Virus record (IMG/VR): IMGVR_UViG_3300021400_000072
Length of the DNA: 64,000 bases
Origin: a virus
Direction: 5' to 3' (one strand)
Position numbers and translations under genes: made by a program. Shown here in pieces: positions 1 through 61,400 of the stretch. The notes under the pieces are model-generated. The model was not told where the DNA came from and searched no databases. It worked only from the letters and a program-made list of their open reading frames with translations. Position 1 is the stretch's first letter, and each line of letters opens with the position of its first letter.

Positions 1-73
1 GCTCAGAACTAGACTTGAACTAGTAACGCGAGGATCTTCAGTCCTCCGCTCTACCCATTAAAACTATCTGAGC
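1..73 (-). tRNA. tRNA-Phe(GAA); 3' end at window edge
   Basis: Minus-sense cloverleaf: acceptor GCTCAGA/TCTGAGC, anticodon arm GAGGA-CTGAAGA-TCCTC, T-arm ACTAG-TTCAAGT-CTAGT. Confidence 0.7.
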
Positions 74-151
74 ATAACAAGACATATAATTTGTAAATAA
101 TGACTGTTTTTCAGACAGTTGTCTTAACCATTTGACTACATAAGCTAACGT

Positions 152-286
152 GCTTGTGACAGGATTCGAACCTGTAAACTTACAAAAGTAAGAAATTGCT
201 GTATATGTCTTTCATTTTATATTTATGTTGTGGATTCTTGATTTTATTTGATGTTGGTGCCTTATTCGCCTAAATCCACATAAGCC
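152..286 (-). ncRNA. tRNA-like element (T-arm ACAGG-TTCGAAT-CCTGT plus CTTAC-TTTT-GTAAG tetraloop hairpin); 5' end unresolved
   Basis: Canonical T-arm and 3' acceptor-like strand CACAAGC, but no canonical D or anticodon arm. Best 5' partner GCTTATG (280-286) leaves one mismatch and implies a ~60-nt insertion. Confidence 0.3.
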
Positions 287-291
287 AACAG

Positions 292-373
292 TAATTCTGG
301 TGGGATTCGAACCCACATGCCTTCTGACCACAGGGTTTGAGCCTGTTGCGTATACCAATTCCGCCACAGAATT
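292..373 (-). tRNA. tRNA-Leu(CAA), type II
   Basis: Acceptor AATTCTG/CAGAATT, anticodon stem ACAGG/CCTGT with loop CTCAAAC, 13-nt variable arm, T-arm GTGGG-TTCGAAT-CCCAC. Confidence 0.75.
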
Positions 374-401
374 ATATCCTGCTTACGCAGGAATTAAGAA
401 G

Positions 402-792
402 TAGAAGCGAAGGGATTCGAACCCTCAATCCTTGCGGTAACGGATTTTCTTACTACTCTATGTCACCATAGCCATCTTAAAGATGTTGTAGTCTGGACTA
501 TGTCTTTGCCATATTATTTCTAACTTAGGCAGATGGTATATAGTCTCTACACATTTATAAATAAAAAGGCTGTTTATCAAAATCCATTTAACTACAGCGT
601 TATACGAACTCGCCACTATCAAATTGGCTTCCTCAGTCTGTCGTAGCACCCTTTTATTTAATTTAGCTCGGCGTTCTCTTAGCTATTCGCCGAATTAGCC
701 ATCTCCACTTATATCATTTCTGATATAAGGCTCTCCTTTTATGTTTACTAAGAAAAAAGTCCGTCGTGTATACCAGTTCCACCACGCTTCCA
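402..792 (-). tRNA. tRNA-Leu(UAA) interrupted by a ~310-nt group I-like intron in the anticodon loop
   Basis: 5' exon GGAAGCG..ACGGA-CTT (785-757), 3' exon AAAA-TCCGT + long variable arm + T-arm GAGGG-TTCGAAT-CCCTT + CGCTTCT (441-402). The acceptor pairs with two wobbles. Spliced loop CTTAAAA gives anticodon UAA. Intron lies between U34 and A35, ends in G, and has P7-like AGACTA...TAGTC. Confidence 0.6.
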
Positions 793-885
793 TATAAATT
801 TAAACGGTTGTAAAGATAAAAATTTATTATTTTTCTATTTTAACAGGGAAAAATAATAAAAGCCTGCCTAACAACTTAATAATGA

Positions 886-1254
886 TTACTGCTCACGAGA
901 AGCAATAAACGCATCATACTCGTCCTTGAAGCACCAAGCAAATCCATAAGCCTTATGGGTCTTAGTTCTTCCATTCAAAGCATCACCGATGCCTGACTTG
1001 CCTTCTTGTCCAATTGCGGCAAGTGCTTCCTTCTGTGTTGCAAACTCTGCAATAACTGCATAAGTTTCGGGGTCAAGCTGAAGAACACCTGACTTATTCG
1101 GACTCTTACGCTTACGAGCGGCGGCCGCCTCATCTTCCTCAACACGAGCAAGTGCTTCTCTCAAGGTATCCAGAAGCTGCTCTCTGATACCTTCATTTAC
1201 ATCTGTTGCATTTTCAAAATAGAAAATCAAACCTTCAATCTGTTTCTTATCCAT
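886..1254 (-). CDS. hypothetical protein (122 aa)
   Basis: ORF with RBS AAAGGAG upstream of the ATG; minus-strand promoter TTGACA-N17-TATAAT at 1281-1325. Confidence 0.7.
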   Translation of the reverse strand: MDKKQIEGLIFYFENATDVNEGIREQLLDTLREALARVEEDEAAAARKRKSPNKSGVLQLDPETYAVIAEFATQKEALAAIGQEGKSGIGDALNGRTKTHKAYGFAWCFKDEYDAFIASREQ

Positions 1255-1280
1255 ATTTACTCCTTTTTACTCTTGTTTTT

Positions 1281-1325
1281 TAATTTCTATAAATATATTA
1301 TACTAAAAATTTTTTATTTTGTCAA
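1281..1325 (-). promoter_or_regulatory. sigma70-type promoter (TTGACA-N17-TATAAT) for gene 886..1254
   Basis: Minus-sense TTGACAaaataaaaaatttttagTATAAT. Confidence 0.6.
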
Positions 1326-1969
1326 CAATTGAATAACTTAATTATATCTATGAATAACACCCCTTCGGGTTGCTGGCAATAACCTTCTCTTATATTCGAC
1401 CACCAAGGAGACATACCTGAGCGGTTAGGAGCGACCTAAACGCTATATGCCCCATCTGTCTAAGACAGACAAATCTTGTAGAGGATTTTGCATACCTCTA
1501 ACTTTCAGCTACCTTTCAGAAAAGTATAAATAAGATTTACCATATCTTGTTTATCCAAATTTGTCTACGCACTTTTAGCCTACTCGTACCTTGACCCAAT
1601 CTTATACACGACTTCCGTCGCTTCATGTGCGCTAACCCCTTATGGAAATTCCAAGGTTTGCAAAGTTTTCCACGCTTCACCTAACTTGGATTAGTGCTCT
1701 CGTTAAAGAACCCTATATTATGGAGCCGATTGGAACAGTGTCTTTAAAAGCGATTACCCCAGTGCTATTGACTAAACCATTTCTTTAGACCTGGCGTTTT
1801 ATACGTCACCGCATAAAAACTTTTCTCCTAAGAAAGTATCCTTTCTTATTCTGGTTATTCGTAAAGCCAATACCTCAGCGTCATGGAATTGACGTTTATC
1901 ACTGAGTTGCTTCATAAATATAACTAAATTATTCAATTGTCAATGTTCTTTTGTTGGTAATCCAACGAA

Positions 1970-2042
1970 GGTCTTAGGTAAGGAATCGAACCTTACTTAT
2001 TCATCTCTTTTGAGAATCACATTACCTATATGTTACTAAGAC
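1970..2042 (-). ncRNA. tRNA-like gene with atypical anticodon arm (TCTC-AAAA-GAGA tetraloop)
   Basis: Perfect acceptor GTCTTAG/CTAAGAC, D-arm ACAT-ATAGGTA-ATGT, T-arm GTAAGG-TTCGATT-CCTTAC; 73 nt with no 7-nt anticodon loop. Confidence 0.45.
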
Positions 2043-2253
2043 GCCTATCTATGTATATCATCAGAAAGGAAGTGAATATAAAAAGGGATAAACCCATTTA
2101 TAACAATGCAAAGGGGAGTAGCGTGTAGCACTATCATCTAATGTTCTCCCTAGTTTTTGTTTTGGAATTTCGCCAAAAGGACTTATTTGATATATTGGAA
2201 AGTGCTTAATCTCGTAATCCATCACAGGGCTTATATGGTAGCCTGAACCTCGT

Positions 2254-2325
2254 AGCGGAGGTGGGATTCGAACCCACGTGATACGGCGTATGAGACCGCG
2301 CTGGTACCTCTCCAGTCCACTCCGC
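2254..2325 (-). tRNA. tRNA-Met(CAT) (Met, fMet or Ile2 type not distinguishable)
   Basis: Anticodon stem GCGGT/GCCGT with loop CTCATAC; T-arm GTGGG-TTCGAAT-CCCAC; acceptor GCGGAGT/CCTCCGC with a U-C mismatch at 7-66. Confidence 0.55.
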
Positions 2326-2418
2326 AATATTAATCAAGACAGTTTAAAATATAGCCTATTTAATCCCAAATTTAAATGCTTGTATTTTTTCTTTTGTTGC
2401 TGTTTCTGTCTTTCACTT

Positions 2419-2457
2419 TCTATAAATATTATAACAAAAAATTTTTTAAAAATCAAA
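2419..2457 (-). promoter_or_regulatory. conserved promoter repeat TTGATT-N17-TTATAAT upstream of tRNA-Met
   Basis: Plus strand ctataaatattataacaaaaaattttttaaaaatcaaat; its reverse complement is a sigma70-like -35/-10. Confidence 0.55.
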
Positions 2458-2649
2458 TACGGTATATGCATCTACCGTATTGGTCTATGAGGGCTACCAC
2501 TCCGCTTGCTATATCGTTTTTATCCTTCAGCTAGTTCTAGGGGCCAAGACATTTGTTCTCTTTTTGCAACAATAGCTTTCCGAACCTTAAAAAGTCAACC
2601 TACTTATATTAATATCATTGCCTAAGGTTATATTAATACTTTCAGTAAA

Positions 2650-2706
2650 TGCTCTATGTAGGAGTCGAACCTACACTCACAAAAGTAAGTTCCATCATAA
2701 TAGAGC
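2650..2706 (-). ncRNA. 57-nt tRNA-like mini-element (acceptor + T-arm + tetraloop hairpin, no D or anticodon arm)
   Basis: GCTCTAT / TATGATGGAA / CTTAC-TTTT-GTGAG / T / GTAGG-TTCGACT-CCTAC / ATAGAGC. Confidence 0.45.
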
Positions 2707-2785
2707 AGTCTCCTTTTATCTCTCTTATATTTTAAAAGAGCCAAAAAATAATGCTCTGAAAAGAGGAAAGATGATACGTATCAAG

Positions 2786-2859
2786 TAGCCCCTGGGGGAA
2801 TTGAACCCACCATCTTGACCTTGAAAGGGTCATATCCTGTCCTTTTAGAAGAAGGAGCC
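2786..2859 (-). tRNA. tRNA-Glu(TTC)
   Basis: Anticodon stem TGACC/GGTCA with loop CTTTCAA; T-arm GTGGG-TTCAATT-CCCCC; acceptor GGCTCCT/AGGGGCT with two G-U pairs. Confidence 0.55.
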
Positions 2860-2868
2860 ATATTTCTT

Positions 2869-2912
2869 TCACTTTCTATAAATATTATAATAAAAATTTT
2901 TTAAAAATGCAA
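2869..2912 (-). promoter_or_regulatory. promoter repeat TTGCAT-N17-TTATAAT
   Basis: ctataaatattataataaaaattttttaaaaatgcaaat. Confidence 0.55.
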
Positions 2913-3311
2913 ATAAAAATGGGAACTTATATTAACACTGTATCCCCTGATAGGTTTGCGCTAGCCTTATCTTACAGCGGGTTTTCCTAAGTCCAGTTTT
3001 CCTTGTCATTCCCATGCATTTATATACCGAGCGAGAACAGACGCGGTTATTGCGGCAATAAAAATTTTTTAAAAATGCAAACTTTTATCTTTATAACGTA
3101 TGACACTGCACCTAAAGTCATATTGACATACTTTATGTTAGGATTCTAAAAAATTTAGTATACATTAATTAATTAGCTATGGACGCATGTTTTCCTACCC
3201 TATTATAAAGATAAGTTGCGGGCTGGCGCCTTGCCCTAAACGGTTTTACGACCTCACCGTCTTAACGTCTACGTTTTGTCCATCAGGAGCGACCTGCTTT
3301 GCAGTAGCCAA

Positions 3312-3392
3312 TAGGGGACACGGGATTCGAACCCGCACGCACAAGGCACTAGATCCTAAGTCTAGGGTGGCTACCAGTTACACCAATCCCCC
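3312..3392 (-). tRNA. tRNA-Leu(TAG), type II
   Basis: Anticodon stem CTAGA/TCTAG with loop CTTAGGA; long variable arm; T-arm GCGGG-TTCGAAT-CCCGT; acceptor GGGGGAT/GTCCCCT. Confidence 0.65.
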
Positions 3393-3791
3393 ATATAAGA
3401 TAGATGCTTGCCAACGCTTTAGCCCCAGCTCGGGTATCTATCATACCCTACTCCCACAAACTTGGGATGCAGTAAGAGTTTCACCTGTATAACTCTGTAA
3501 AGATACTGTATCTTCTACGGCGTACAGTTCACTCACATTACCGGATTCTTTTAATCACTCCTAAAGAATCTAACTGGCTACATTTTAGCAGCTTAGATTT
3601 ACATTGGCGGAAGGTAAATCAACTTCCTCTTTTACTCAAATTTTGAAAATTTGAGATAGGTTGATCCTACACCTAAAGGACTTTTTCCAGTAACACCCCA
3701 AAAAGCAAAGCGGCTATCCTATCAACAGCTTAGATTTACACATTCAACCGAGTAGATTTACATATTAATAGGAAGGTAAATCAACTTCCTA

Positions 3792-3864
3792 ACGACCTAG
3801 TGGGGAATTGAACCCCAGTCTCTCGGGCGACAACCGAGTGTAATTACCTTTATACGACAAGGCC
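3792..3864 (-). tRNA. tRNA-Asp(GTC)
   Basis: Anticodon stem CTCGG/CCGAG with loop TTGTCGC; T-arm TGGGG-TTCAATT-CCCCA; acceptor has one mismatch. Confidence 0.55.
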
Positions 3865-4049
3865 AAACATTAAATAGCTTAGTCCATTTCTTAGGCTCCC
3901 TTCTCACTATAGCCTGAATTCCACAGGTCATGACTCCTGTTATTCTAGGTAGTTCACTATGGTCTCGCTCTCCCGACCGCCGTGATTTGGTGGACTCTCT
4001 TGATGTTTATGCGCACTATTAAATCAAGTCACCATTGCTATTTATGTAG

Positions 4050-4122
4050 CGGCCCCAGAAGGGTTCGAACCTTCGACATAACGGTTAACAGCCGTTCGCT
4101 CTGCCAACTGAGCTATAGGGCC
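4050..4122 (-). tRNA. tRNA-Asn(GTT)
   Basis: GGCCCTA-TA-GCTC-AGTTGGCA-GAGC-G-AACGG-CTGTTAA-CCGTT-ATGTC-GAAGG-TTCGAAC-CCTTC-TGGGGCC-G; clean cloverleaf. Confidence 0.85.
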
Positions 4123-4224
4123 AAATATGAGGGTTACTTTGCGTCTTTATATACCGTTTTCCACTAAAGCCACATATCTTATGCCGGTGGTAGTTTACCC
4201 TCAAAATCCATGATAACGGTTTAA

Positions 4225-4299
4225 TCATCCCTACAGGCTTTGAACCTGTGTTTCAAAATTGAGAATTTTGTGTCCTGAACCGAACTAGACGAAGGGACG
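4225..4299 (-). tRNA. tRNA-Glu(CTC)
   Basis: Anticodon stem CAAAA/TTTTG with loop TTCTCAA; T-arm ACAGG-TTCAAAG-CCTGT; acceptor CGTCCCT/AGGGATG. Confidence 0.6.
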
Positions 4300-4377
4300 A
4301 CAGTGCTTTTTCTGGCGTCACACTTTCCGCCTTGAGCCTGAGAACTTTTTAAAGGGAGTTTCTGAACTCATGCCGTT

Positions 4378-4557
4378 TTAACCCTCGTCCGCACGGACAT
4401 AATTTTCTGTTACTTCATAATGAAATCCAATCCAACCAAATCTATCTTCCAAAAATCTCACAGCAGAGAAGCCTTCAACAAACGTAATATGCTTCTGATT
4501 TACATCGTCAAGATACTCAACCATGTAGATAACAGCAGTTCTCTCATTCTTTCTCAT
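4378..4557 (-). CDS. small hypothetical protein (59 aa)
   Basis: ATG at 4557 with RBS AGGGGG 8 nt upstream; TAA at 4378; promoter repeat at 4612-4652 immediately upstream. Confidence 0.5.
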   Translation of the reverse strand: MRKNERTAVIYMVEYLDDVNQKHITFVEGFSAVRFLEDRFGWIGFHYEVTENYVRADEG

Positions 4558-4611
4558 AATAAAGACCCCCTGAAATGATATTTTTTAGTTTGTTTTTGTT
4601 TCTTTTTCTTA

Positions 4612-4652
4612 CGATATAAATATTATAACAAAAAATTTTTAAAAATTCAAAT
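4612..4652 (-). promoter_or_regulatory. promoter repeat TTGAAT-N17-TTATAAT
   Basis: acgatataaatattataacaaaaaatttttaaaaattcaaat. Confidence 0.55.
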
Positions 4653-4782
4653 AATATGCAGTGTGCTGTTACGCCAAAGGGAAGTCAGCCCTTACCAGTT
4701 ACGGGGTGGCCTTCTACTTCTATCATACGATAGTCCCACTCTTTAAAAGATGGATGCTTTTAATCCCACTTTCTACATATAA

Positions 4783-4853
4783 AGCCCCTCCCCGGATTTG
4801 AACCGAGATACAGTGATTACAAATCACTAGTGTTACCGTTACACCAAAGGGGC
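4783..4853 (-). tRNA. tRNA-Thr(TGT)
   Basis: D-stem GTGT/ACAC; anticodon stem AGTGA/TCACT with loop TTTGTAA; T-arm CTCGG-TTCAAAT-CCGGG; acceptor GCCCCTT/GAGGGGC. Confidence 0.7.
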
Positions 4854-5029
4854 ACGCGTACCGCCGCAGTGATTATAGAGATGCTTCGCGGTTTTCCTGG
4901 GTTTCATTCTCTTTTTTGTTAATTAACTTTATAAGCTATAGGTTGCTACCCCAGTCTAACGATGACCGACGACCTGTGAATTAAAGGTTTTAACAGGTTT
5001 TACTTACCTAATTATGCTACGAAAGCATA

Positions 5030-5103
5030 TGGACCACTAGGGATTTGAACCCTAATCTGACAGATTAAGAGTCTGCTATGTTAACCGTTAACACCAGTAA
5101 TCC
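5030..5103 (-). tRNA. tRNA-Lys(CTT)
   Basis: Anticodon stem GCAGA/TCTGT with loop CTCTTAA; T-arm TAGGG-TTCAAAT-CCCTA; acceptor GGATTAC/GTGGTCC with two G-U pairs. Confidence 0.55.
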
Positions 5104-5213
5104 AGGCTTATACAGCTACATACCTACTATATCAGGACATTACTCTGATTTTCTAAGTTTTTCTTAGTATGTTATGATTTTACATTATATAGTGTTATGG
5201 ACCCTGTATAACG

Positions 5214-5285
5214 TGCGTCCGGTGGGAGTTGAACCCACGATATACAGGTTAAAAGCCTGTTGCCATACCGCTTGGCTACGGACGC
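5214..5285 (-). tRNA. tRNA-Lys(TTT)
   Basis: GCGTCCG-TA-GCCA-AGCGGTA-TGGC-A-ACAGG-CTTTTAA-CCTGT-ATATC-GTGGG-TTCAACT-CCCAC-CGGACGC-A. Confidence 0.85.
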
Positions 5286-5346
5286 TTATTAAATTTTTAT
5301 AAATGCCCGTAGGCTTGCGTTTTCGTTTCATTTTTTATTCCCTCAC

Positions 5347-5392
5347 TTTGTATAAATATTATAACAAAAATTTTTTAAAAATTCAAATAAAA
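5347..5392 (-). promoter_or_regulatory. promoter repeat TTGAAT-N17-TTATAAT
   Basis: gtataaatattataacaaaaattttttaaaaattcaaat. Confidence 0.55.
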
Positions 5393-5508
5393 TTTGAAGG
5401 GTTGCATCGAAGATTCTTAGGTAGTCTTACAACGGATTGATTACCGACGCCCATGACGTGTCTCTCGTCCGTGTCCCATTTTTATTCTCTTCACAAATCT
5501 TATTTGAG

Positions 5509-5580
5509 AGCAGACAATGGGAATCGAACCCACATTTTTAGCTTGGCAAGCTAACATATTAACCGTTATATTATGCCTGC
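5509..5580 (-). tRNA. tRNA-Gly(GCC)
   Basis: Anticodon stem TTAGC/GCTAA with loop TTGCCAA; T-arm GTGGG-TTCGATT-CCCAT; acceptor GCAGGCA/TGTCTGC. Confidence 0.7.
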
Positions 5581-5810
5581 TTGAACTAGGATATATGGCC
5601 AACTTACCTAGATATATTTTAGCACCTTACCAGGCCGCCCTCATTTTAGTTACCATAAGCAATTGGCCGCGTGCTCACCAAGCCGCCGGATTGGGTTAAG
5701 TACCCAATAACTCCTTATTTTTCTTTCGTGAAATAAAGCAACCCGACTACGTTCTTTAACCTCTCGTAATAAAGAAGACCACCTCTTTCTAGCATCCTGT
5801 GGTCAGGGAC

Positions 5811-5882
5811 AGCCCCATGTGGGAATCGAACCCACCTATCTAGCTTGGAAGGCTAGCATTTTAGCCGATAAATCAATGGGAC
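5811..5882 (-). tRNA. tRNA-Gly(TCC)
   Basis: Anticodon stem CTAGC/GCTAG with loop CTTCCAA; D-stem ATTT/AAAT; T-arm GTGGG-TTCGATT-CCCAC; acceptor GTCCCAT/ATGGGGC. Confidence 0.7.
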
Positions 5883-5887
5883 AGATA

Positions 5888-5950
5888 TAAAAACTATTAA
5901 AGGTACGCTTTATGGGTGGAAGCGGCGCGTACTTGATTTTAATAGTTTTT
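5888..5950 (-). other. long leader hairpin between promoter 5953-5995 and tRNA-Gly(TCC)
   Basis: AAAACTATTAAA...TTTAATAGTTTT outer stem with inner GTACGC/GCGTAC stem. Confidence 0.4.
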
Positions 5951-5952
5951 AT

Positions 5953-5995
5953 TTGTTATGATAATATTATATCAAAAATTTTTGAATATTTCAAA
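5953..5995 (-). promoter_or_regulatory. promoter TTGAAA-N17-TATAAT
   Basis: Minus-sense TTGAAAtattcaaaaatttttgaTATAAT. Confidence 0.5.
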
Positions 5996-6008
5996 TTATT
6001 TTTGACCT

Positions 6009-6308
6009 TTATTTAGAAAAATAATATCTTCGCCAATACTTATAAAAATCTTTTAATGTAGGATAATCTTCTTGCCAAACAATACCATACATATTAGGAT
6101 GAAAATATTCAAATTTAGCATCTTTCCATGTCCATCTACTAATATAGTCATGTATATGCTATGTTTCAAAGACTTTTTTATAAGCATTTCCATTAGGAAG
6201 AATAATTTTACTACGTCTTATTCTTTTATTTGCTTGTCTTTTGTTTCGTTTAGGAATAGGCGTACGCCCATCTGTATAAACAGGATTCTTTTTATATGAA
6301 CGTGACAT
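6009..6308 (-). CDS. basic hypothetical protein (~99 aa) with one in-frame TAG
   Basis: ATG at 6308 with RBS AAAGGAG; ORF runs to TAA at 6009 through one TAG (absent from the ORF track for that reason). Likely cotranscribed with tRNA-Ile and the tRNA-Gln-like gene. Confidence 0.45.
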
Positions 6309-6323
6309 ATTTTTCTCCTTTGA

Positions 6324-6395
6324 TTGCGAGGGTAGGATTCGAACCTACAATCACCGGGTCAAAAACCGGCCGCTTTACCGTTAGCGTACCTCGCT
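6324..6395 (-). tRNA. tRNA-Gln(TTG)-like with 8-nt anticodon loop (TTTTTGAC) and unpaired A1:A72
   Basis: D-arm CGCT-AACGGTAA-AGCG; anticodon stem (G)CCGG/CCGG(T) enclosing 8 nt; T-arm GTAGG-TTCGAAT-CCTAC. Arm sequences resemble E. coli tRNA-Gln1 except for the loss of the position-39 nucleotide. Confidence 0.45.
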
Positions 6396-6517
6396 TACTT
6401 ATCATACCTTTTTATCTGTCTGAGAGTAGCTACCTCTCCCCATCTACTTACCACAATCCTTGATAATATTCTTTGATAAGCATAATACATGTTATATGAC
6501 GTCATTTTATGTATTAG

Positions 6518-6591
6518 TAGGGGACCTGGGACTCGAACCCAGGACACGCACCTTATAAGGATGCTGCTCTCACCTACTGAGCTAGTCCCCT
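6518..6591 (-). tRNA. tRNA-Ile(TAT)
   Basis: AGGGGAC-TA-GCTC-AGTAGGTGA-GAGC-A-GCATC-CTTATAA-GGTGC-GTGTC-CTGGG-TTCGAGT-CCCAG-GTCCCCT-A. Confidence 0.8.
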
Positions 6592-6616
6592 AAACGGGAT
6601 ATTTTTTATCCCTTAA

Positions 6617-6660
6617 CTTTATAATAATATTATAACAAAAAATTTTTAAAAATGCAAATT
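6617..6660 (-). promoter_or_regulatory. promoter repeat TTGCAT-N17-TTATAAT (for tRNA-Ile operon)
   Basis: tataataatattataacaaaaaatttttaaaaatgcaaat. Confidence 0.55.
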
Positions 6661-6665
6661 AATTT

Positions 6666-6953
6666 TTAACAAATCATAAATTTTCTATTGCGGGCTTCCC
6701 GATTAATCCATAACGTAAATCTATGACAATCGTTATAACTCCATTTCCACAAGAGTAGATTAGAATCTTTAAAATAATGAAAATCAAAAGCATGATAATC
6801 ATTTTTAAGTATTATTATATAATCAGTTAAACTGATATTAAGCATACGTGCGGGAAGCCACCAATAATTGCTACCGTGAGCCAAATCAGAAACATCTCCA
6901 GAATACCATTTTCCATTAGATTCCCACTCAGTATATTTCATAATATGGCTCAT
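6666..6953 (-). CDS. hypothetical protein (95 aa)
   Basis: ORF in a compact minus-strand series. Confidence 0.5.
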   Translation of the reverse strand: MSHIMKYTEWESNGKWYSGDVSDLAHGSNYWWLPARMLNISLTDYIIILKNDYHAFDFHYFKDSNLLLWKWSYNDCHRFTLWINREARNRKFMIC

Positions 6954-6962
6954 AATAACTCC

Positions 6963-7274
6963 TTATAGATTTAGGGCGGCAATTAAATCTGCAACATTCT
7001 GCTTCTCTTCTTCAGTTACTTCCGCAGGATTAACAGTTCTTTCTGTCGGGGTACCGAAAGCTGATGGAGCGGCCGCAGGTCCAAAAGCACTCTTTAATTC
7101 ACCTGAACCCATATTAGATTTTGCCGCAGTCAAAGTAACTTTAATTTCTACAACTCCACTACCTTCACTCATCGGAATACGAAGAATTTTACCTTCATCT
7201 TCCCAAAAAGCATCGGGATAAACACGTTTCAATTCCGCAAAAATTAAATTCTTACTCTCTGTGCCTTTTGCCAT
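6963..7274 (-). CDS. hypothetical protein (103 aa)
   Basis: ORF with RBS AAAGGAG; promoter-like TTGAAA..TATAAA at 7283-7330. Confidence 0.6.
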   Translation of the reverse strand: MAKGTESKNLIFAELKRVYPDAFWEDEGKILRIPMSEGSGVVEIKVTLTAAKSNMGSGELKSAFGPAAAPSAFGTPTERTVNPAEVTEEEKQNVADLIAALNL

Positions 7275-10076: not shown

Positions 10077-11825
10077 TTATTTATGAAAAGTCTTATTTAA
10101 ATTATTTTTTGAACAGCTGATTATCATATTGTCTGGATAACAATCAACATAACATTCTCCATTTTCGTATGCCATCATAACAATAGCACCTTTATCAGTA
10201 AAGACTTTATAAGTTAATTTGCGGCCTCCGCTTGATTTACTATGATGATAATTAGATAATCCAACTTTAGGTGAACAAGCATTAATTTGAATTATCTTAA
10301 TACCGTTTCTGTCAGAGTGCCATTGTAATTTAAATACATCACATTTTAATTGATTCTTTTTCTATGCTACTAAAGCATCAATAGCCTAATAAGAGAGGTC
10401 CCCAGCAGTGAAGAATTTCCATCCGTTTAAATTAAACATTAATGCAACAGACATCATATTTACAAAATGATGGTCATCAGTTTGTTTTAATTTAGAACGT
10501 TTTACTTGCCAAGACCAATCTAGTTTAATATTACCTGCGGACCAAGTAAAACCGTTAGATATGTATTTATAATTAATTCTCTTATCTTTAGCTATTGTTC
10601 CGATACTTTTTAAAGTAGAAATAGCTTTTTTCGCGGCTTTTACAGATTCCATTTCTTTATAATCTGATATAAAAATATTCTCTACTGTAAAAGTCTGGCA
10701 AATAGATTTTAAAATACTTAAATTTGCATGATCCCCGTGTCCGTGAGAAATAAATATAGCGTTTATTTTTGGCGGATTAATCTTTTTTAGCTTTTTAATT
10801 GTATCTCCCCCGCCAGGACCCGTATCTATTAAAACACAATTTTTAATTGTTTTATTATCATCTGCATACTCGGTGATAAGATAACTGTCACCATATAAAT
10901 TACTATTAGATTCAGACGTCCAAATTTGATGTATTCTTATTTTATTTTTTTTTGATGAAGGGGCTTGAGTTAATATTTCATTAACCTTCTTTTGTACTTT
11001 AGTTGTATCATATCCACAGAATTTTAATAATAATACTCTTATTTCACCTTTATCAAATTTATTTGCTATTACACATTGGGCGGCCGCCTATACAGTTTTA
11101 CCTTTTAGAGCATATATTTCATTAATATGAGTTTGAACTTTGTTAGCCCATGAAGATAAACGTTTTGTTCGATAGTCATTTTTACCCATGTATCCTGCAA
11201 TTGTAGCAATAGCAAGAGCATGAACAGTATTAGATTGATTTGAAACAATCTAATTTACTTTATTTTGTATTGCTTTTGCGTTCTATGTGCCAAAAGCGGC
11301 AAGCATAGCAGTTCTATTAGTACCAGATCCATAAGTGCCAAGAATTACCTAAGCCGCGCAAATAGTCGTTTGAAGATTATTCATTATAGGCATAGCATTA
11401 TATTTAGGTCTAATGTATCCTAAAACAAATCTACCTTTATATGTTCTACGACTACAACCACCATTATAATTTCCTGAAATAGTTCTGTTATATCCTACAC
11501 AGAATTCGGTATGATTAGGCTTTTTATTACTGTCACAATAGATGATAATATCTCCAGGGCGGACGCCTGAAGTTCCATTATGCCAAATTCCTAATTTCTT
11601 TGCTTTTGATATAGCATCACCAGAAATTTGAGAATATCCTCCTATTGTATCTATTCCGCCTGCATCCTATAAAGCTGCCATAATTGTCATTGTACCCCAA
11701 GCCGCAGACATTTTAGCACTATGATTATGTTTTTTTAATGTGTTTACAACATCCTAATGTGCGGTCTTACTACCGTCATATTTATTATAGGCTGTTAAAA
11801 CATCCCAAACTGTACATTTTCCCAT
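10077..11825 (-). CDS. putative lysin: N-terminal CHAP/NlpC-P60-like Cys-His hydrolase fused to C-terminal metallo-beta-lactamase-fold domain; TAG-recoded
   Basis: ATG at 11825 with RBS AAGGAGG. Reading frame continuous to TAA at 10077 through about 8 in-frame TAG codons. Motifs ...GDIIIYCDSN...HTEFCVGY... and ...ISHGHGDH.... Confidence 0.6.
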
Positions 11826-14475: not shown

Positions 14476-14530
14476 TTAAATTCCTTTCTTGCGGAGGCTA
14501 GGTTATGTCAGGATTAAGCTACTTCCCGCA

Positions 14531-14983
14531 TTAATTATCAAACCAATAAAGAACATATACATCAGAAGGATAATAATATTCATAACCAGCAAATCTAATA
14601 TAATATTCTATTTGTTCGATAAAAAATTTAATGGGGTTAGTTGTTTCAACTATTTCATCACCGCAGTTATCATAATCAGTAATAGTAGGATTACACATTA
14701 AATAATTTTTTAAATCTGCAAAATTAACTTCTTTAAAATTGAAATACCCCATGGTATTTTGTATTTCTTGAATTTCTTTAGCAAAAGAAGGCTCAAGAAA
14801 AGTAGTGTGTAACTGATTCCAGGGAATATCATTTTCTAAAAGTTCAAATAATTCGTGATTACGTTTATTATAAGGTTTAATAGAAATGTATTTATCTTTT
14901 TCCTTGCTGAAAATTTCTATTTTATCGTAGAATCCTGTTTCAGTATTTCTTATAGCAACAGCTGTGTGAATATCTTTTCCCAT
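14531..14983 (-). CDS. hypothetical protein (150 aa)
   Basis: ORF. Confidence 0.5.
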   Translation of the reverse strand: MGKDIHTAVAIRNTETGFYDKIEIFSKEKDKYISIKPYNKRNHELFELLENDIPWNQLHTTFLEPSFAKEIQEIQNTMGYFNFKEVNFADLKNYLMCNPTITDYDNCGDEIVETTNPIKFFIEQIEYYIRFAGYEYYYPSDVYVLYWFDN

Positions 14984-15554: not shown

Positions 15555-15733
15555 ATAAAAATAGGGGGTAGTAGTATGACAATAGTATGTGATTGTACAG
15601 CTTGCTCTTATAATAGAGGCCGCTTTTGTAGAAATAGGTTAATTAAAATTACTAAATAGGGTATTTGTAAAAGATTAACTATGCGAAATTGGCGGGAGCC
15701 AGTTTAGTAGAGATTTATGGAGGGTTATAGAAA

Positions 15734-55356: not shown

Positions 55357-55454
55357 TAGGGCTAAATAATTTAATTTTGATCGCTCTCTTTGTATAAATA
55401 TACAAAGAGAGCGATTTTTTTATTTTATTTGAAATATAAAGGAGGAGATAATTA

Positions 55455-58400
55455 ATGGCTCAACAAGGAGGAAGAATAGATTTTCAAATAGGTTTTAAAA
55501 CCGATAAATCTGGAATATAGGATTTAAAGAAATCTTTACAATAGATACAAAAGATTAAACCTGCGAATTTCGATGGCACAAATCAAGATTTGCAAGAAGT
55601 TAAATCTACTGCTAAAGAAGTTGAGGCAGCGTTATCTAAGGCTTTTAATCCTAATATTAATTCTATAAATTTAAAAACATTTGATAATCAATTAAAAGCG
55701 TCAGGTAAAACTATAAATGATATATATACAAGTTTTTCTAAAGCTGGCGCACAAGGCTAGGTCGCATTTAGTCAAATGGCTAGGTCTGTACTTACCACAA
55801 ATCAGCAATTAAAAGAAACACATAGTATTATTAATTAGATGGGTACAACATTTGTTAATACTATTAAATGGGGTGTTGCATCTAGTATAATGAATACTTT
55901 TACAGCAAGTGTTCAAGGTGCTTTCACATATGTTGAAAGTTTAGAGAAATCTTTAACAAATATTAGAATTGTTACTGGTGATTCCCAAGAGAAGATGGAG
56001 CAATTTGCGGATTCTGCTAACCGTGCCGCTCAAGAATTGGGCCGTAGCACTATGGATTATAGTAAGGCCGCACTTACTTTCTATCAACAGGGTTTAGGAG
56101 AAGAAGATGTTCAGGCTAGAACTGAAGCCGTTTTAAAAGCATAGAATATTACTGGCGCGGGCTCATAGATGGCAGATTACTTAACCGCAGTGTGGAATGG
56201 TTATAAAGTCGCTAATGAATAGGCGTAGGTTTATGTCGATAAGCTCGCCGCAGTTGCAGATAGAAGTGCTTCTGACATGAGTTAGTTAGCTATTGGTATG
56301 TCTAAAGTTGCGTCTACTGCTAATACAATGGGTGTAAATGTAGATCAATTAAATGCTCAATTGGCTACTGTTATTGCTACAACAAGACAGGCGCCAGAAG
56401 CTGTCGGTACAGCATTTAAGACTATATATACTCGTTTGAATGATATTAAAACTGGCGCGGATGGTGCTTAGGTAAGTTTAGGAAACTATTCTGGTAAGAT
56501 GGCAGCATTAGGTTTTAATGTTCTTGATGCTACAGGTCATCTTAGAGATACAGGATAGGTTATGTAGGAAATAGGTGCCCGCTGGGAAGACTTAACAAGA
56601 GAACAACAAGTTTATTTGGCTACTACAATGGGTGGTCAAAGACAGGTTAACCAGTTAATGGCTCTATTTGACAACTGGACTACATATAGTGAATTATTAA
56701 ATACATCCCTTGAATCTGAAGGTACTCTTGCACAGAAAAACTCTGTTTATTTAGAGTCTCTTGGTGCTAAGATGGAACAATTAGGAGCAGCAGGAGAACG
56801 TGTAAAAGCTAGTTTAATTGATAATGAGAGTTTTGGTAATGTTATTGAATTATTAACAACTGGAACTAATTTATTAGGCAGTTTCATTTAGGCTATCGGC
56901 GGCGGTGGCACTGCTTTACTTGGATTAGGCGGTATCGCTACGCAAGTTTTTAGTGGCGTTATTTCTAAAGAAATTAATAATGCTATTGTTAATTTTCAAA
57001 ATATGAAATTTAATGCTTAGCAAACTGCAAAAGAATTATAGCTTACTCAACAGTTTGGAGAAAGAAATAATTTTGATCAATCTAAAGTTATTGATTAGAT
57101 GTTAAAAGCTAAACAATAGATGCAAGGATATTACTCTGTAATGTCTACTGAATAGAGAAATGCTTATAATGAATTAGTCAATGCTTTAGGTGTTGCTAAA
57201 GAGCAAGTTATTACAGAAGAAGATAAAATAAAAAAAGCTGAATAGTACAATAAAGCTTTACAAGCAGTTGCTGATGAATATTAGATAGATCTTTAGGCTC
57301 AACGGTTAGGAGTTGTAGAATATACTGATAGCATTACTAATTTATTAAATAATTTAAAAAAGGGATCAGGAGATAAATCTACTCTTTTTGCAGATTTAAA
57401 TTTACAAATTGAAGAATTAGAAACTAATTTAGGAACAATGTCTCCTAAATTAAAATCTATGTTTGAATAGCTTAAATCTCTACAAGGAGAAAAGGAAGAT
57501 AAAGATAGAATTTTAGCAGCTTTTTTCCCAAATGGAGATAAAGGACTTTAGCAATAGTCTTAGGCATTAAGAAGAAAAATTACAAATTTAATAAATTAGA
57601 TTAATAATGAAGTAAAAAATTTAACAGATTTAAGTATAGATATTGATGTTCATACTAAAGGATTAAAAGAAGCTAAAGAAGATTTGGCAAAAGCAGAAGA
57701 AGCTGTTAAGAATTATCAAAAAACAATGTCTCAAGCTTTAGATGTAAAGAATATAGTTTCAGGCATTGGAGAAATAGGTCGAATGTCATCTGCTTTTATG
57801 GCATTAGGAAATAGTATAAAAACAGCATTCGATTCTAACATATCTCCTTCTGAAAAATTTTTTAAAATTTTAATGAGTGCTTCTTACTCTATTCCTACGA
57901 TAGTAACTAGTTTTGAAAGATTAAAAACTTATACTAAATCTTTATCTGATGCTATAAAGGCGGCTAACATTGTAAAATAGGCATAGAATAAAATAGATAC
58001 TGCTAAAGCAGCGATTCAAGAAAAAGAAATTGCTAATAATGCAATAGAAAGTGGACAGAGAATAGCAGAGGCCACAGAAGAAGGTATAGTTACAACAGCT
58101 AAAGGTGCAGAAACAGTTGCTACTAATTTATTAGCAGCAGCTTAGGAAAGATTAGCAGCCGCAAGAGCAACAAATCCTTTAGGTTTAACTTTATTGGTAA
58201 TTGCTGGCGCAGTTTTAGCTATAAAAGGTCTTACTGCGGCATATGATGCTGTTACTATGTCTACTGAATAGGCAGGTTAGGCTATTGATAAATTTAATCA
58301 AAAAGCAGAACAAACTAAAAATACAATCAAATAGTATAATACTAATATTAGTAATTTAGATGCTGCTAAGGAAGAGTGGGAAGAGCTAGCTGATCGTGCT

Positions 58401-61400
58401 GGAAGTTATAATACAACTATTGATAACTTAACAGAAGACGAAAAGGCACGTTATTTTGAATTAAGCAATTTAATTGCTCAATATAATGAAGGTGCTGTTC
58501 AAGGATATGATGAACAAGGCAATGCAATTATTGCAAATAATGACGCTTTAAAAGAAACTATTTAGTTATTAAAACAAAAACGTCAAGAAGAAATTAATGA
58601 CACTTATTCAGGTGAAGATTTTTAGTAGGCTCAAAAAGGTCGTCAAGCCTATGCTAAAGACGCAAATAAACAAGGTAAAAAATTTACTAATATTGCAGAA
58701 GGCTCTGCTAATGAGATTTTAGATTATCTAAATTCATATGGAAATGATTTAGATGATGGATTAACAGGGTTTAGAGATAGACTTGCTGAGATTACTGCTA
58801 AAGGCGAAAAAGGTATATTAGAACATCAGGAAGAACTTATTCAAATTTTTGAAAAGTTAATGGAAAGTGGAAAATTACCTGACGCTTATATGTCACAACC
58901 CATTTTAGATACTTTAAAAGATTATAGTGATAAATATACTGATGATATAAAGGGAGCCTTAGATGGTTTTAACGAAGATGTAATTGGTGTACTTCAAGTT
59001 TCTACAGATAACGAAGGTTCTAATTTTACTAAAGCAGAATAGGCTGGCTTAACAAATATGAGAGGAATCGTTTCTTCTTATATAGAAGGAATGGATAAAT
59101 ATAACCCAGACGGAACTTTAAAAACACCTTAGGAAATTGCTAAACAAGTTTAGAAAGAAATTGTAACTCCTATTTATGAAAGTCTTGGTCAAATTGATCC
59201 TTAGACAGAAGAAAGTTTATATCAAAAATTAATTAAAAGTATTACAGAAGACGATAAATTACAAAATAATGATTTTAGCAGTTTAGAAGAAAAAAATAAT
59301 TATATCGTTCAAAAAATAGAAGATTTTATCCAATCTAATATTGAAGCATTTGAAAATTTAACTCCTGATGCTAAAAAAGCATTAGAAGATTTGTTTGCTA
59401 ATTTATATAATTTAGATAGTTTAAAAATTAATTTTAAAACTGGAAAAGTAGAATAGTCTGTAGATAAAGCATTAGATAGATTAGCAAAAAGGATTAACAA
59501 AGATTGGGATGAGCTTGATGCAAAAACTCAAGATAAAAAGAGAAACGCTTTAACCTCAATATTAAAATCTGATATAGATGAAAAAGAATTAGATTATATT
59601 ACATAGCATATAGAAAAAGCTATAAAAATATATGGTAATGAAGTTGAAGCAATAAAAGCATTACAGGAATAGGCTTCTAAATTAGGTAATTTAGATGATA
59701 ATTTAAACACTATGAGTTTGTTAGACAAACAAGCTAGTGGAGAAAAATTAGGTCAAAAAGAACAATAGTCTTTATAGTCTGGATTAAATACTTTAAAAGA
59801 TAGTTATCCTGATTTAATCAAGCAAGTTTAGATTCTTCAAACATAGTGGATGCAAGGTACTTCCGCCTATGAATAGGCTTTAAGAAAAGTAAAAATGGCT
59901 TTAATAGATACATTAGGAGAATCTTTAAATAAAGCTTTACTTTAGGCAGAAGATAGTGTTTTATAGCAAGAAAAAGCATTATAGGATTATAATAATAAAA
60001 TTTTAGATTTAACAAGAACTACTGAAGATTATCAAACAATTTTACGATTAAGCAAAGTAACAGATTAGACTAAACAACAAAGTTTAATTAAAATTGCAAC
60101 AAGCTACGAAAGTTGTAGAGATTAGTTAGAAAAATATTATAAAACAATACAAGAACATCCTGACGATTTATAGGCACAAGAACCCGAAAGATTTGCGCTA
60201 GAGCGTTCTACCAGAGCAGCAGAAAATGGAGAGCAGTTTGGTATTGATCCAGAACGTATTCAAACTTTAGCGGCACAATATTCTGAATTAGCAGACCAAG
60301 AAGCAGCAGGATATGAAGGTTTAAATTAGAATGCAGAATTAGCAGCAGACGCCGCCACTCGTTATATTAGACTTAATGATGCTATTGCTGATTTACAACA
60401 AAATTATGATAAAGTAACATCTGTTTTGTCTGATTTACGAACTTTAGGACTAGAAGAAATTGCGGCAAATAAAGATTTATCTGATACTTTTCAACAGATA
60501 AAAAAAGATGTTGCAGGAATAGTGGATACGTCAGAAGATTTAATTGGAGATGACTGGATAAAAGATCATGCTGGTTAGATTCAAGCTGCTTTAGAAGGTG
60601 ATCAATAGGCCATAGATAGTTTACGAGAAGCTGCTCAAGAAGAAATTTTAACTAATGTAGGTATCGATTTTGAAGGTTTTGATGAACAAAAAGCAGGATT
60701 TTTATCTCGCTTAAATGAATTAGAAGATGGTGCTGATATAACAGCAGAAATGTCTTTAGATGATGTAGCTTTTCTTCAAAATCTTGTTTCTGCTATGTAG
60801 CAAGCTGGCATGGCGCAAGCAGATATTGAAAATGCTTTAAGCGGACTTGGAATAGATGTTGATTTAGCTCCTTATGAAGAAGGATTAAATTCTGCCATTG
60901 ATCAAGCTGCAGAAGCGGGAATGCTTTCTTCTGATGCTTTTGCAGGCAATGCAGGTGTAAATTCTACTATAACTACTTCTACGGATACTGCCCAAGATAC
61001 AGTATAGGCTCCTGGTTATGATGTGACTCCAACAGACGTTCCTTTTAGCATTTCTTTACCTGTAGTTGCACCTGCAATGTATCCAGGAGTAGCAATTCCT
61101 ACTTTTACAGGAGGAATTGCTACTGCACCAGGCTCTTATCCCTCAATTGAAGTTACTCCTAAAACAGAGTCTGTTGAAGCTACCAAAGAAACAACTGGAA
61201 CGGGTTTATAGGTAGTAGGTGCGAGAAAATCTTCTGGTGGTAAAGTTAGTCATAAAAATGCATCAGGTGGTAATAAAAAATCTTCTGGTGGTAAAGGTAA
61301 AGGCGGTAAAGGTAAAAAAGGAGGAGGTAAAAAAGGCTCAACTAAAACTCCTAAAGTTTAGAAACCTATTACAGATAAACCTGACCGTTACCATGATGTA

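Follow-up and report, generated by a model that had tools for sequence, protein, structure and literature searches.

The window analysed here, a 64,000-nt stretch of viral DNA from IMG/VR record IMGVR_UViG_3300021400_000072, carries three tRNA-like elements (152-286, 1970-2042 and 2650-2706; elements 1, 2 and 3) which an earlier note had grouped as one family of tRNA-like genes whose anticodon arm is replaced by a tetraloop hairpin. The observation is real and biologically meaningful but was mis-assembled: these are three classes of non-decoding tRNA mimic, not one tetraloop family. We consider it probable that all three are tRNA-derived, functional RNAs that do not decode, each of a different kind. 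Element 1 is part of a circularly permuted tRNA mimic, likely a Y RNA of the phage; element 2 is a tRNA-like gene placed just upstream of a ROOL RNA; and element 3 is a mini tRNA-like RNA of 57 nt.

The elements do exist, but on the minus strand, within a minus-strand array (window 1-6600) of about 17 tRNA genes that also holds the ROOL RNA. The T-loop 11-mer GGTTCRANTCC, which has 23 matches in the window against 4.1 expected, occurs in them at 162-172, 1982-1992 and 2661-2671, and these are the only three T-loops of the array outside called tRNAs. ARAGORN at its default settings calls none of the three. The hairpin common to elements 1 and 3 is also genuine: where 0.06 copies of CTTACTTTTGTRAG would be expected there are exactly two (179-192 and 2676-2689), and no shuffled sequence (0/100) reached two copies. 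For comparison we used relatives from many independent rumen assemblies, with contigs of about 130-146 kb. One further locus, L025, lies on an 87-kb sheep-rumen metagenome scaffold and is 100% identical to the window across 11,254 nt. It reaches 9.1 kb past window coordinate 1 and there adds further tRNAs (including a CUA suppressor), a second, 'type B' copy of the permuted mimic, a third RNA of the 'frame' type described below, and a 501-aa gene.

A circularly permuted tRNA mimic at 78-214

Drawn as 152-286, element 1 folds no better than shuffled sequences (z = -0.7). The strand that had been taken as the 5' side of its acceptor stem, 280-286, lies inside a 72-nt stretch missing from the close relatives L011, L012, L015 and L150, and its pairing is broken by a G-to-A change in L004, where the true partner strand, 139-145, is intact. 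Indeed, CACAAGC (152-158) pairs with GCUUAUG at 139-145 and not with 280-286. The 72 nt (215-286, minus strand) are an optional insert, present in L004, L005, L008, L013 and L017 and varying even between near-identical genomes; it forms a hairpin, GTGGATT...AATCCAC, and its first 7 nt duplicate the GCUUAUG of the true acceptor strand. Structure prediction and covariance, the check that the note had proposed, upheld the fold of element 2 and the stems of elements 2 and 3; element 1 as delimited failed it and was re-parsed as a 137-nt unit at 78-214 on the minus strand.

This unit, which we call type A, takes in the 3' half of element 1 together with a weak Rfam 'tRNA' match at 81-145 (34.8 bits, cut-off 29), which is a fragment, the second half, of the permuted mimic. 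A covariance model (R1) gives it 164.7 bits and finds no other copy in the window, and the minimum-energy fold of 75-216 (minus strand) alone contains all six helices. From 5' to 3' these are arranged as a closing stem, the motif ACAGCAA, a variable-arm (V) hairpin, a T arm, a closed acceptor-like stem, UA, a D arm, an anticodon-like arm and a 14-nt tail. The closing stem, P1, pairs 202-211 (AAGACATATA) with 79-88 (TATATGTCTT) over 10 bp; in the MAFFT alignment 98.8% of its cells are paired and 3 of the 10 pairs change on both sides, and all 10 covary in the independent phage set introduced below. Single-stranded ACAGCAA (196-202), just after the 5' strand of P1, is invariant in alignments A1 and A2. 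The V hairpin, CTTAC-TTTT-GTAAG (179-192; 5/5 pairs covarying), is the former 'tetraloop'. It stands 3 nt upstream of the T arm, and distant members have a long class-II-like variable arm at this place. In both element 1 and element 3 a gap of 1-3 nt separates the hairpin from the T arm downstream of it; this is the position of a variable arm and not, as had been thought, that of the anticodon arm.

The T arm, ACAGG-TTCGAAT-CCTGT (159-175), shows a compensatory change from ACAGG/CCTGT to ATGGG/CCCAT in relatives. Next comes the acceptor-like stem, CACAAGC-ACGTTA-GCTTATG (139-158), of 7 bp with a 6-nt loop; it has a conserved A.C mismatch, all 7 pairs covary, and in L006 it reads TATTTG/CAAATA. 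After TA (137-138) follows the D arm, GTC-AAATGGTTAA-GAC (121-136), with 3/3 pairs covarying (GCC/GGC in L011). The unit also carries what the note had found wanting in element 1, a separate anticodon-like arm with a 7-nt loop. This hairpin B, ACTGT-CUGAAAA-ACAGT (103-119), has a 5-bp stem that covaries (ACTAT/ATAGT in L013, AACAT/ATGTT in L149) and a loop of the pattern C-U-NNN-A-A. Its central triplet differs between relatives at 0.65 per site, against 0.08 elsewhere, reading GAA, CGU, UAA, GCA, GGU, AAA or AUU among close relatives while the C-U-NNN-A-A frame and the stem are kept. Such variability could mean relaxed constraint or diversifying selection.

The structure is carried by covariation. 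In a MAFFT alignment of eight relatives 95.6% of cells are paired and 11 of 35 pairs are compensatory, which 0/500 shuffles reached, and slid-partner controls paired only 27-48%. The model made from this alignment finds one type A and one type B copy, the latter without the last hairpin, in each related genome, and in 17 model-aligned members 28 of the 35 pairs are compensatory. An independent set consisted of 79 other phage contigs, selected solely for encoding a homologue of the protein downstream of the mimic; here the covariance model found 34 further members. All 34 are on the strand of that gene and 33 of them are upstream of it. Among the 32 distinct sequences, which lie outside the model building, all 35 pairs are compensatory, and pairing stands at 92.6%, compared with about 40% when partners are slid. 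Some stems were mis-registered by MAFFT in type B and in element 2, and model-based or stem-only alignments, which favour structure, were used instead; the unbiased alignment A1 and the independent set A9 agree with the model-based result. Some distant members are permuted elsewhere, with the order anticodon arm, long variable arm, T arm, closed acceptor, D arm. The module therefore makes up a complete class-II-type tRNA shape, and 78-214 corresponds to an entire class-II-like tRNA whose point of circular permutation falls between anticodon arm and variable arm. A permuted or split tRNA of the bacterial style that decodes was considered for this unit and rejected, because the hypervariable anticodon and the members without an anticodon arm argue against a fixed decoding role.

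Likely identity of the mimic and of its protein partner

YrlA is a tRNA-mimicking Y RNA bound by bacterial or phage Ro60 and encoded at most about 4 kb from Ro60 on the same strand, with known phage examples (PMC4201824, PMC12135203); its layout is a closing stem followed by V, T, 'acceptor' and D stem-loops (PMC4201824). Fold, covariation and model alignment give the mimic the same module order (V, T arm, loop-closed acceptor-like stem, D arm), and its 5' and 3' ends likewise pair, through the 10 bp of P1. Its best Rfam match is YrlA (RF02553), aligned over the full length (20.9 bits, window 91-202), and the type B paralogue of the same genome (L025 13448-13565) reaches 25.2 bits. Moreover, a 501-aa gene with domains DUF2828 and DUF7788 lies 5.1 kb downstream on the mimic's strand (L025 16294-17799), with paralogues of the mimic 2.7 and 1.7 kb from it, and its product appears to be Ro60-like. 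Sites beside Ro-like genes in two cultured phages are matched both by Rfam YrlA (34-48 bits) and by the mimic model (36-48 bits), and have the frame AAAGA...CAGCAA/CAGCGA...UCUUG: Enterococcus phage Porthos has two such elements immediately upstream of its Ro-like gene, and Mycobacterium phage Silverleaf has one immediately downstream, with CAGCAA present and no tRNA array nearby. On the strength of the layout, the best Rfam match, the downstream gene and the co-location in Porthos and Silverleaf, 78-214 is likely a divergent YrlA-type Y RNA of the phage.

The likeness to YrlA extends to a conserved short motif on the 5' strand, to several paralogues per genome and to the acceptor-like stem, which in Mycobacterium smegmatis YrlA has 7 bp, as here, and is cut by RNase P. 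The mimic differs in having ACAGCAA instead of GNCGAAN0-1G, and in imitating a whole tRNA, since it also possesses a full anticodon arm, whose 7-nt loop carries a hypervariable triplet. It also sits within a tRNA island, 5 kb from the gene instead of adjacent to it. In Thermus phage phiLo a Ro60-fold protein (phiRo60) likewise has Y-like RNAs, Yrl1 and Yrl2, upstream on the same strand, but those are defined by a stem-bulge-stem with a CGAA motif and not by a permuted tRNA module (PMC12135203). Coliphage Bas63 gp130 is a Ro60-like protein beside a tRNA array, as here; no Y RNA was delineated there, although the authors guessed that some of the array 'tRNAs' are Y RNAs (PMC11482910).

The assignment of the partner protein as Ro60-like draws on a predicted fold and on homology to annotated phage 'Ro-like' proteins. 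For the fold we took a close homologue that has an AlphaFold model and shares 95% identity with the copy in L017: the nine best Foldseek matches of this model in PDB are all Ro60 proteins aligned over the full length, the best being Thermus phage phiLo Ro60 (E = 5e-6), with D. radiodurans Rsr at 4e-5, and the protein has the HEAT-repeat ring and vWA domain of the Ro60 / TROVE type. By tblastn, homologues occur in 704 cultured phages, some annotated as 'Ro-like RNA binding protein' (37% identity) and many adjoining tRNA arrays; in metagenomes the family has more than 8,000 clusters. Separately, we observed that related phages and Porthos have a transfer-messenger RNA gene close to the Ro60-like gene, within the tRNA island (L006 2485-2742; L020 12801-13057; L352 2118-2468), and we noted a LAGLIDADG open reading frame (ORF) that splits the Ro60-like gene in L026 (17184-19552).

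If the Y RNA reading is right, the ends of the mimic would be made by processing of the flanking tRNAs, as suggested by the RNA stopping 4 nt before tRNA-Phe. P1 and ACAGCAA, which is present in every frame element and is a candidate binding site, would bind the Ro60-like protein, and the tRNA-shaped module would recruit, or imitate tRNA for, host or phage tRNA-handling enzymes.

ACAGCAA and the paired ends define a 'frame' (AAAGAC...ACAGCAA...GUCUUG) that is not confined to the mimic. In 41 diverse phage loci, scanned 8 kb to each side of the Ro60-like gene, 89 frames lie upstream on the gene strand, 2 downstream and 0 on the opposite strand. A scan with AAAGACA..ACAGCAA proved too short a pattern and gave, among the matches listed, mostly singles in unrelated contigs. 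Motif scan, fold and promoter scan identified a second frame RNA in the window at 2335-2413 (minus strand), AAAGACAG-AA-ACAGCAA...CTGTCTTG, which has no tRNA-like insert. The promoter at 2428-2456 immediately precedes this RNA and tRNA-Met follows it after 9 nt; it may be a second Y-like RNA comparable to YrlB. Beyond the window are the frame of the type B copy (L025 13445-13563) and a third (L025 14479-14595), which encloses a tRNA-Arg-like gene (called by ARAGORN as tRNA-Arg at 14509-14582).

Several observations speak against the Y RNA reading. Neither the window copy nor the paralogue reaches the YrlA gathering score of 69 bits, of which the elements beside the Ro-like genes of Porthos and Silverleaf, at 34-48 bits, also fall short, and the published Ro-binding motif GNCGAAN0-1G is absent from the mimic, which has ACAGCAA in the equivalent place. 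The Ro60-like gene lies outside the window, and its protein model is only moderately confident (pLDDT 67.9, TM about 0.4). Pfam gives it DUF2828 and DUF7788 only, with no TROVE match, and phmmer and profile searches against PDB returned no Ro60 match. Finally, the frames are always found in a co-oriented tRNA island, so the RNA may be associated with the island and not with the protein, and one frame type encloses a near-ordinary tRNA-Arg, a cargo which would also fit a leader-trailer processing helix.

Two alternatives have to be weighed here. The elements might be decoys or sensors for host tRNA-targeting defence nucleases, diverting or reporting enzymes that cut or modify tRNA. This would account for a hypervariable anticodon-like triplet within a conserved loop frame and stem, and in coliphage Bas63 a Ro60-like protein encoded next to tRNA genes acts against a defence system (PMC11482910). 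As an account of all three elements we regard it as unlikely: elements 2 and 3 have no anticodon loop and cannot be decoys for anticodon nucleases, which leaves the permuted mimic alone; no nuclease or host was identified, and hypervariability of a loop can also mean lack of constraint. The idea is compatible with the Y RNA reading and not opposed to it, and the mimic could, as a tentative and rather improbable extension, be a 'programmable' tRNA decoy or sensor held by the Ro60-like protein, its rapid triplet changes driven by an arms race with host enzymes that cut or modify certain tRNAs at their anticodons.

Alternatively, the frame could serve the tRNA operons, in their processing or in the control of their transcription, as a leader-trailer helix unrelated to the Ro60-like protein, with the mimic as one of its cargoes. 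Many frames begin directly after a promoter or a tRNA and they end 4-10 nt before the next tRNA, so their ends could come from ordinary tRNA processing; besides the type with the tRNA-Arg-like gene, some enclose no tRNA-like insert at all. We nevertheless think this improbable: Y RNAs have exactly this layout, in which the ends pair, the 5' strand bears a conserved single-stranded motif and one module is variable, and the same motif flanks YrlA-like elements beside Ro-like genes in cultured phages that lack the island layout, as in Silverleaf.

Element 2, its ROOL neighbour and element 3

Element 2 runs from 2042 to 1970 on the minus strand and is as the note described it: the acceptor stem is perfect over 7 bp, D and T arms are present, and the place of the anticodon arm is taken by TCTC-AAAA-GAGA (2004-2015). 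It is the only one of the three in which a tetraloop hairpin really replaces that arm. Its minimum-energy fold is a cloverleaf (z = -2.9), and in thirteen versions the acceptor, D and T stems are 99.3% paired, with 7 of 16 pairs compensatory. The anticodon arm, by contrast, is unconstrained: loops of 3, 4, 7 or 9 nt stand on stems of 2-5 bp, or the arm is almost deleted. The variants include CCU with 7-nt loops (always with a purine at position 33), a 9-nt loop, ACAGC-AAA-GCUGU, CC-UAAU-GG in L148 and the UCUC-AAAA-GAGA of the window. U33 was never seen among the versions compared, nor do they show the 5-bp stem and 7-nt loop with U33 of a decoding tRNA. Because loop lengths vary so and the arm can be nearly lost, the tetraloop is not a conserved feature and does not define the group as had been proposed. 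With the Rfam tRNA model (cut-off 29) element 2 of the window goes unreported even at E = 10, and its homologues score 46-48 bits.

Element 2 lies 39 nt upstream of the ROOL RNA (RF03087; 1338-1930, minus strand), which scores 280.6 bits against a cut-off of 99.1 and covers the full model (1-574). Wherever ROOL is found in relatives, element 2 is about 40 nt upstream of it, and L006, L020 and L023, which have no ROOL, have no element 2 either. The promoter scan found no standard promoter between the two; the gap does have a conserved TTGACA-15-TATATT, with a spacer too short for the scan rules and its -10 inside the Rfam ROOL model. Selection acts on the acceptor, D and T arms only, and it is these that RNase P, RNase Z and the CCA-adding enzyme recognise. 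Element 2 would be a tRNA-like leader fused to ROOL, and may serve to release ROOL from the tRNA-Met transcript at its 5' side, or to cap that side. A 122-aa ORF between ROOL and tRNA-Leu (886-1254, minus strand) was also observed; it has no Pfam domain and more than 300 metagenome homologues, and its place in the RNA island is retained.

Element 3 (2650-2706, minus strand) likewise matches its description: 57 nt, a perfect 7-bp acceptor stem (2700-2706 with 2651-2657), a T arm (2658-2674) and no D arm. It has no anticodon arm either; a GG-containing linker (2690-2699) and the hairpin (2676-2689) fill the space, and the discriminator is A (2650). It reaches 29.6 bits on the Rfam tRNA model (cut-off 29), with permissive filters only. 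All close relatives have it in near-identical form, with a UUUU or UUUUU loop. The more distant L018 has TGTCCTA/TAGGACA as its acceptor, both partners differing in 5 of the 7 pairs; its hairpin is longer, and AUGAUGGAA is retained as the linker. UGAUGGAAC, the linker of the window, is also how the D arm of the phage tRNA-Leu(UAA) begins, and the hairpin is common with the permuted mimic (18 nt with its flank, 89% identical, a common variable-arm and T-arm module), which indicates that element 3 is tRNA-derived; its T arm is 91% identical to that of another array tRNA. An IMG/VR scan with TGATGGAAC...T-loop gave no relatives of element 3 among the matches listed, those with short gaps being chance matches with poor acceptor pairing. 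A further family of mini tRNA-like RNAs, absent from the window, was seen directly after the stop of the conserved 122-aa ORF (L013 about 10375-10440, L148 about 1905-1975, L150 about 10370-10440, L023 about 10360-10430); it has an acceptor and T arm with a linker of about 25 nt, and both stems covary between lineages.

A minihelix of acceptor and T arm is the classic minimal RNase P substrate, and element 3 would be such a minihelix with a GG linker and one hairpin, a signal for processing or stabilisation where the tRNA-Glu unit ends. We favour a role as minimal RNase P/Z substrate ending that unit, which is the weakest part of our account. The most likely role of elements 2 and 3 is that of processing signals for RNase P/Z, and the earlier suggestion that the elements interact with tRNA-processing enzymes agrees with which parts are retained. 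Against this it must be said that we infer the role and that any ordinary tRNA could serve it.

Signals of this type are familiar: mascRNA at the 3' end of MALAT1, mitochondrial tRNA punctuation and acceptor plus T-arm minihelices are all tRNA-like processing signals or RNase P substrates. Elements 2 and 3 likewise retain the parts that processing enzymes need, at the borders of non-tRNA RNA and tRNAs in one transcript; here, however, the setting is bacterial or phage and the cleavage is proposed only, and matches to mascRNA in the window are at noise level, to ordinary tRNAs. Also comparable are the stable 'species 1 and 2' RNAs in the tRNA cluster of phage T4 and the D-armless mitochondrial tRNAs. 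The former resemble our elements, by description, as small stable non-tRNA RNAs with tRNA-like ends that are co-transcribed with phage tRNAs; the latter are truncated yet folding, like element 3, but still decode. GOLLD and ROOL RNAs typically lie near phage tRNA islands, with tRNAs at times embedded in the GOLLD linker (PMC5737381, PMC12286853); the dedicated non-decoding element 2 differs in being fixed about 40 nt upstream of ROOL and lost with it. As far as the literature searched goes, the ROOL-linked tRNA-like leader and the mini-mimics are undescribed; the function we propose for them is ordinary.

That the elements are tRNA pseudogenes, decaying after duplication and deletion in a fast-evolving array, is disfavoured and very unlikely. 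A tRNA-gene origin is indeed indicated by the tRNA-Leu(UAA)-like linker and the tRNA-like T arm of element 3 and by the 215-286 insert, which resembles a partial duplicate. But compensatory changes keep the stems paired in relatives that share only 65-70% identity in the adjacent protein, the positions relative to ROOL and tRNA-Glu are conserved, and a permuted order cannot come from simple decay; under such structural selection the elements are not pseudogenes, and the note was right to discount random decay. Still less credible are ordinary decoding tRNAs mis-read through assembly errors or unusual introns. Relaxed ARAGORN settings do call element 2 as tRNA-Leu and element 1 as an intron-containing tRNA-Lys, the Rfam scores of the element 2 homologues are those of tRNAs, and a genuine intron-containing tRNA-Leu is nearby; yet many independent assemblies, made in separate studies, share these features, the loops of element 2 vary in length and never have U33, and element 3 has no space for an anticodon arm. 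A small protein gene in element 3 (AAAAGGAGACUGCUCUAUU-AUG-AUG-GAA...UAG, 14 codons after AAGGAG) was rejected as extremely unlikely, since in L018 the frame differs and there is no Shine-Dalgarno match upstream while the acceptor stem is perfectly compensated, and the spacer to the AUG is 11 nt.

The tRNA island and the meaning of its mimics

The phage is of rumen source and appears to be TAG-recoded. The window has a GC content of 33%, and its ORFs are too short when read with the standard code; with TAG read as sense, the total in ORFs of at least 150 codons rises from 15.3 kb to 42.3 kb. This is clearest in the plus-strand genes from 37.7 kb on, among them an ORF that exceeds 2,849 codons (55452-64000), and just past the window edge this genome encodes a suppressor tRNA(CUA) (L025 12303-12379). 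Searched by blastn against GenBank phages, window 1-7000 and the region of element 2 and ROOL gave ordinary tRNA matches or none.

In the promoter scan, repeated sigma-70-like promoters cut the array into short transcription units. They belong to a cassette of about 40-70 nt, TTGnnn-AAAAATTTTTT-TATAAT-ATTTATAGAAAG, repeated in the tRNA island at 1274-1325, 2400-2468, 2856-2924, 3057-3081, 4594-4662, 5330-5398, 5938-6006 and 6601-6669. The minus-strand promoter at 2428-2456 (TTGATT-17-TATAAT, 10/12 matches, extended TG) heads a unit of the frame RNA, tRNA-Met, element 2 and ROOL. That at 2884-2913, also on the minus strand, heads tRNA-Glu(UUC), element 3 and about 170 nt more, to a terminator-like hairpin at 2456-2481. 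These 170 nt (2482-2649, minus strand) hold a 10-bp AT-rich hairpin; in relatives they are part conserved and part replaced, and they are possibly a further small RNA.

Other features of the island were observed in passing. The anticodon loop of tRNA-Leu(UAA) (401-791, minus strand) is split by a group I-like intron of about 308 nt (ARAGORN -i; Rfam Intron_gpI 31.5 bits, under the cut-off of 50); the intron is missing in L004 and L005, and is longer and overlaps a called ORF in L020 and L023, the one in L023 having a weak HNH_3 match. Homing-endonuclease-type ORFs break genes in relatives elsewhere too, as with a PDDEXK_5 ORF within tRNA-Met (tRNA-Met region of L009, L010, L013 and L014). A tRNA with an 8-nt anticodon loop (6324-6395, minus strand; 'tttg' in ARAGORN, 51 bits in Rfam) is kept in L004, and L025 has a second odd tRNA ('gcat') at 15647-15720. 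The spacer beside tRNA-Thr (4689-4792, minus strand) has a weak Rfam match to bacterial 23S rRNA 1071-1179 (24 bits, E = 3e-4), for which chance and an rRNA-fragment mimic are both possible. The 400-nt spacer from tRNA-Leu(UAG) to tRNA-Asp contains an exact 20-nt direct repeat, GGAAGGTAAATCAACTTCCT, itself a hairpin, at 3609-3628 and 3771-3790, 162 nt apart, with AGCTTAGATTTACA-like repeats close by.

We know of no established function for the tRNA-like domain of bacterial Y RNAs. This group of phages offers many natural Y RNA variants, with and without an anticodon arm, with two permutation points and with several paralogues per genome, next to a very common and poorly annotated phage protein family that is Ro60-like by fold comparison. 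Bas63 gp130 scores as an anti-defence factor whose RNA partners were only guessed at (PMC11482910), and the ACAGCAA frame is a means of finding the RNA partners of Ro60-like phage proteins such as this one. Weak 'tRNA' calls in phage tRNA islands, such as that at 81-145, can be fragments of permuted mimics. ROOL is an abundant RNA that forms nanocages; the fixed tRNA-like leader suggests how it is cut from tRNA transcripts and gives a handle for expressing it with native ends. The decoy reading, if true, would tie Ro60-Y RNA particles to phage counter-defence and give the tRNA-like domain of Y RNAs a concrete job.

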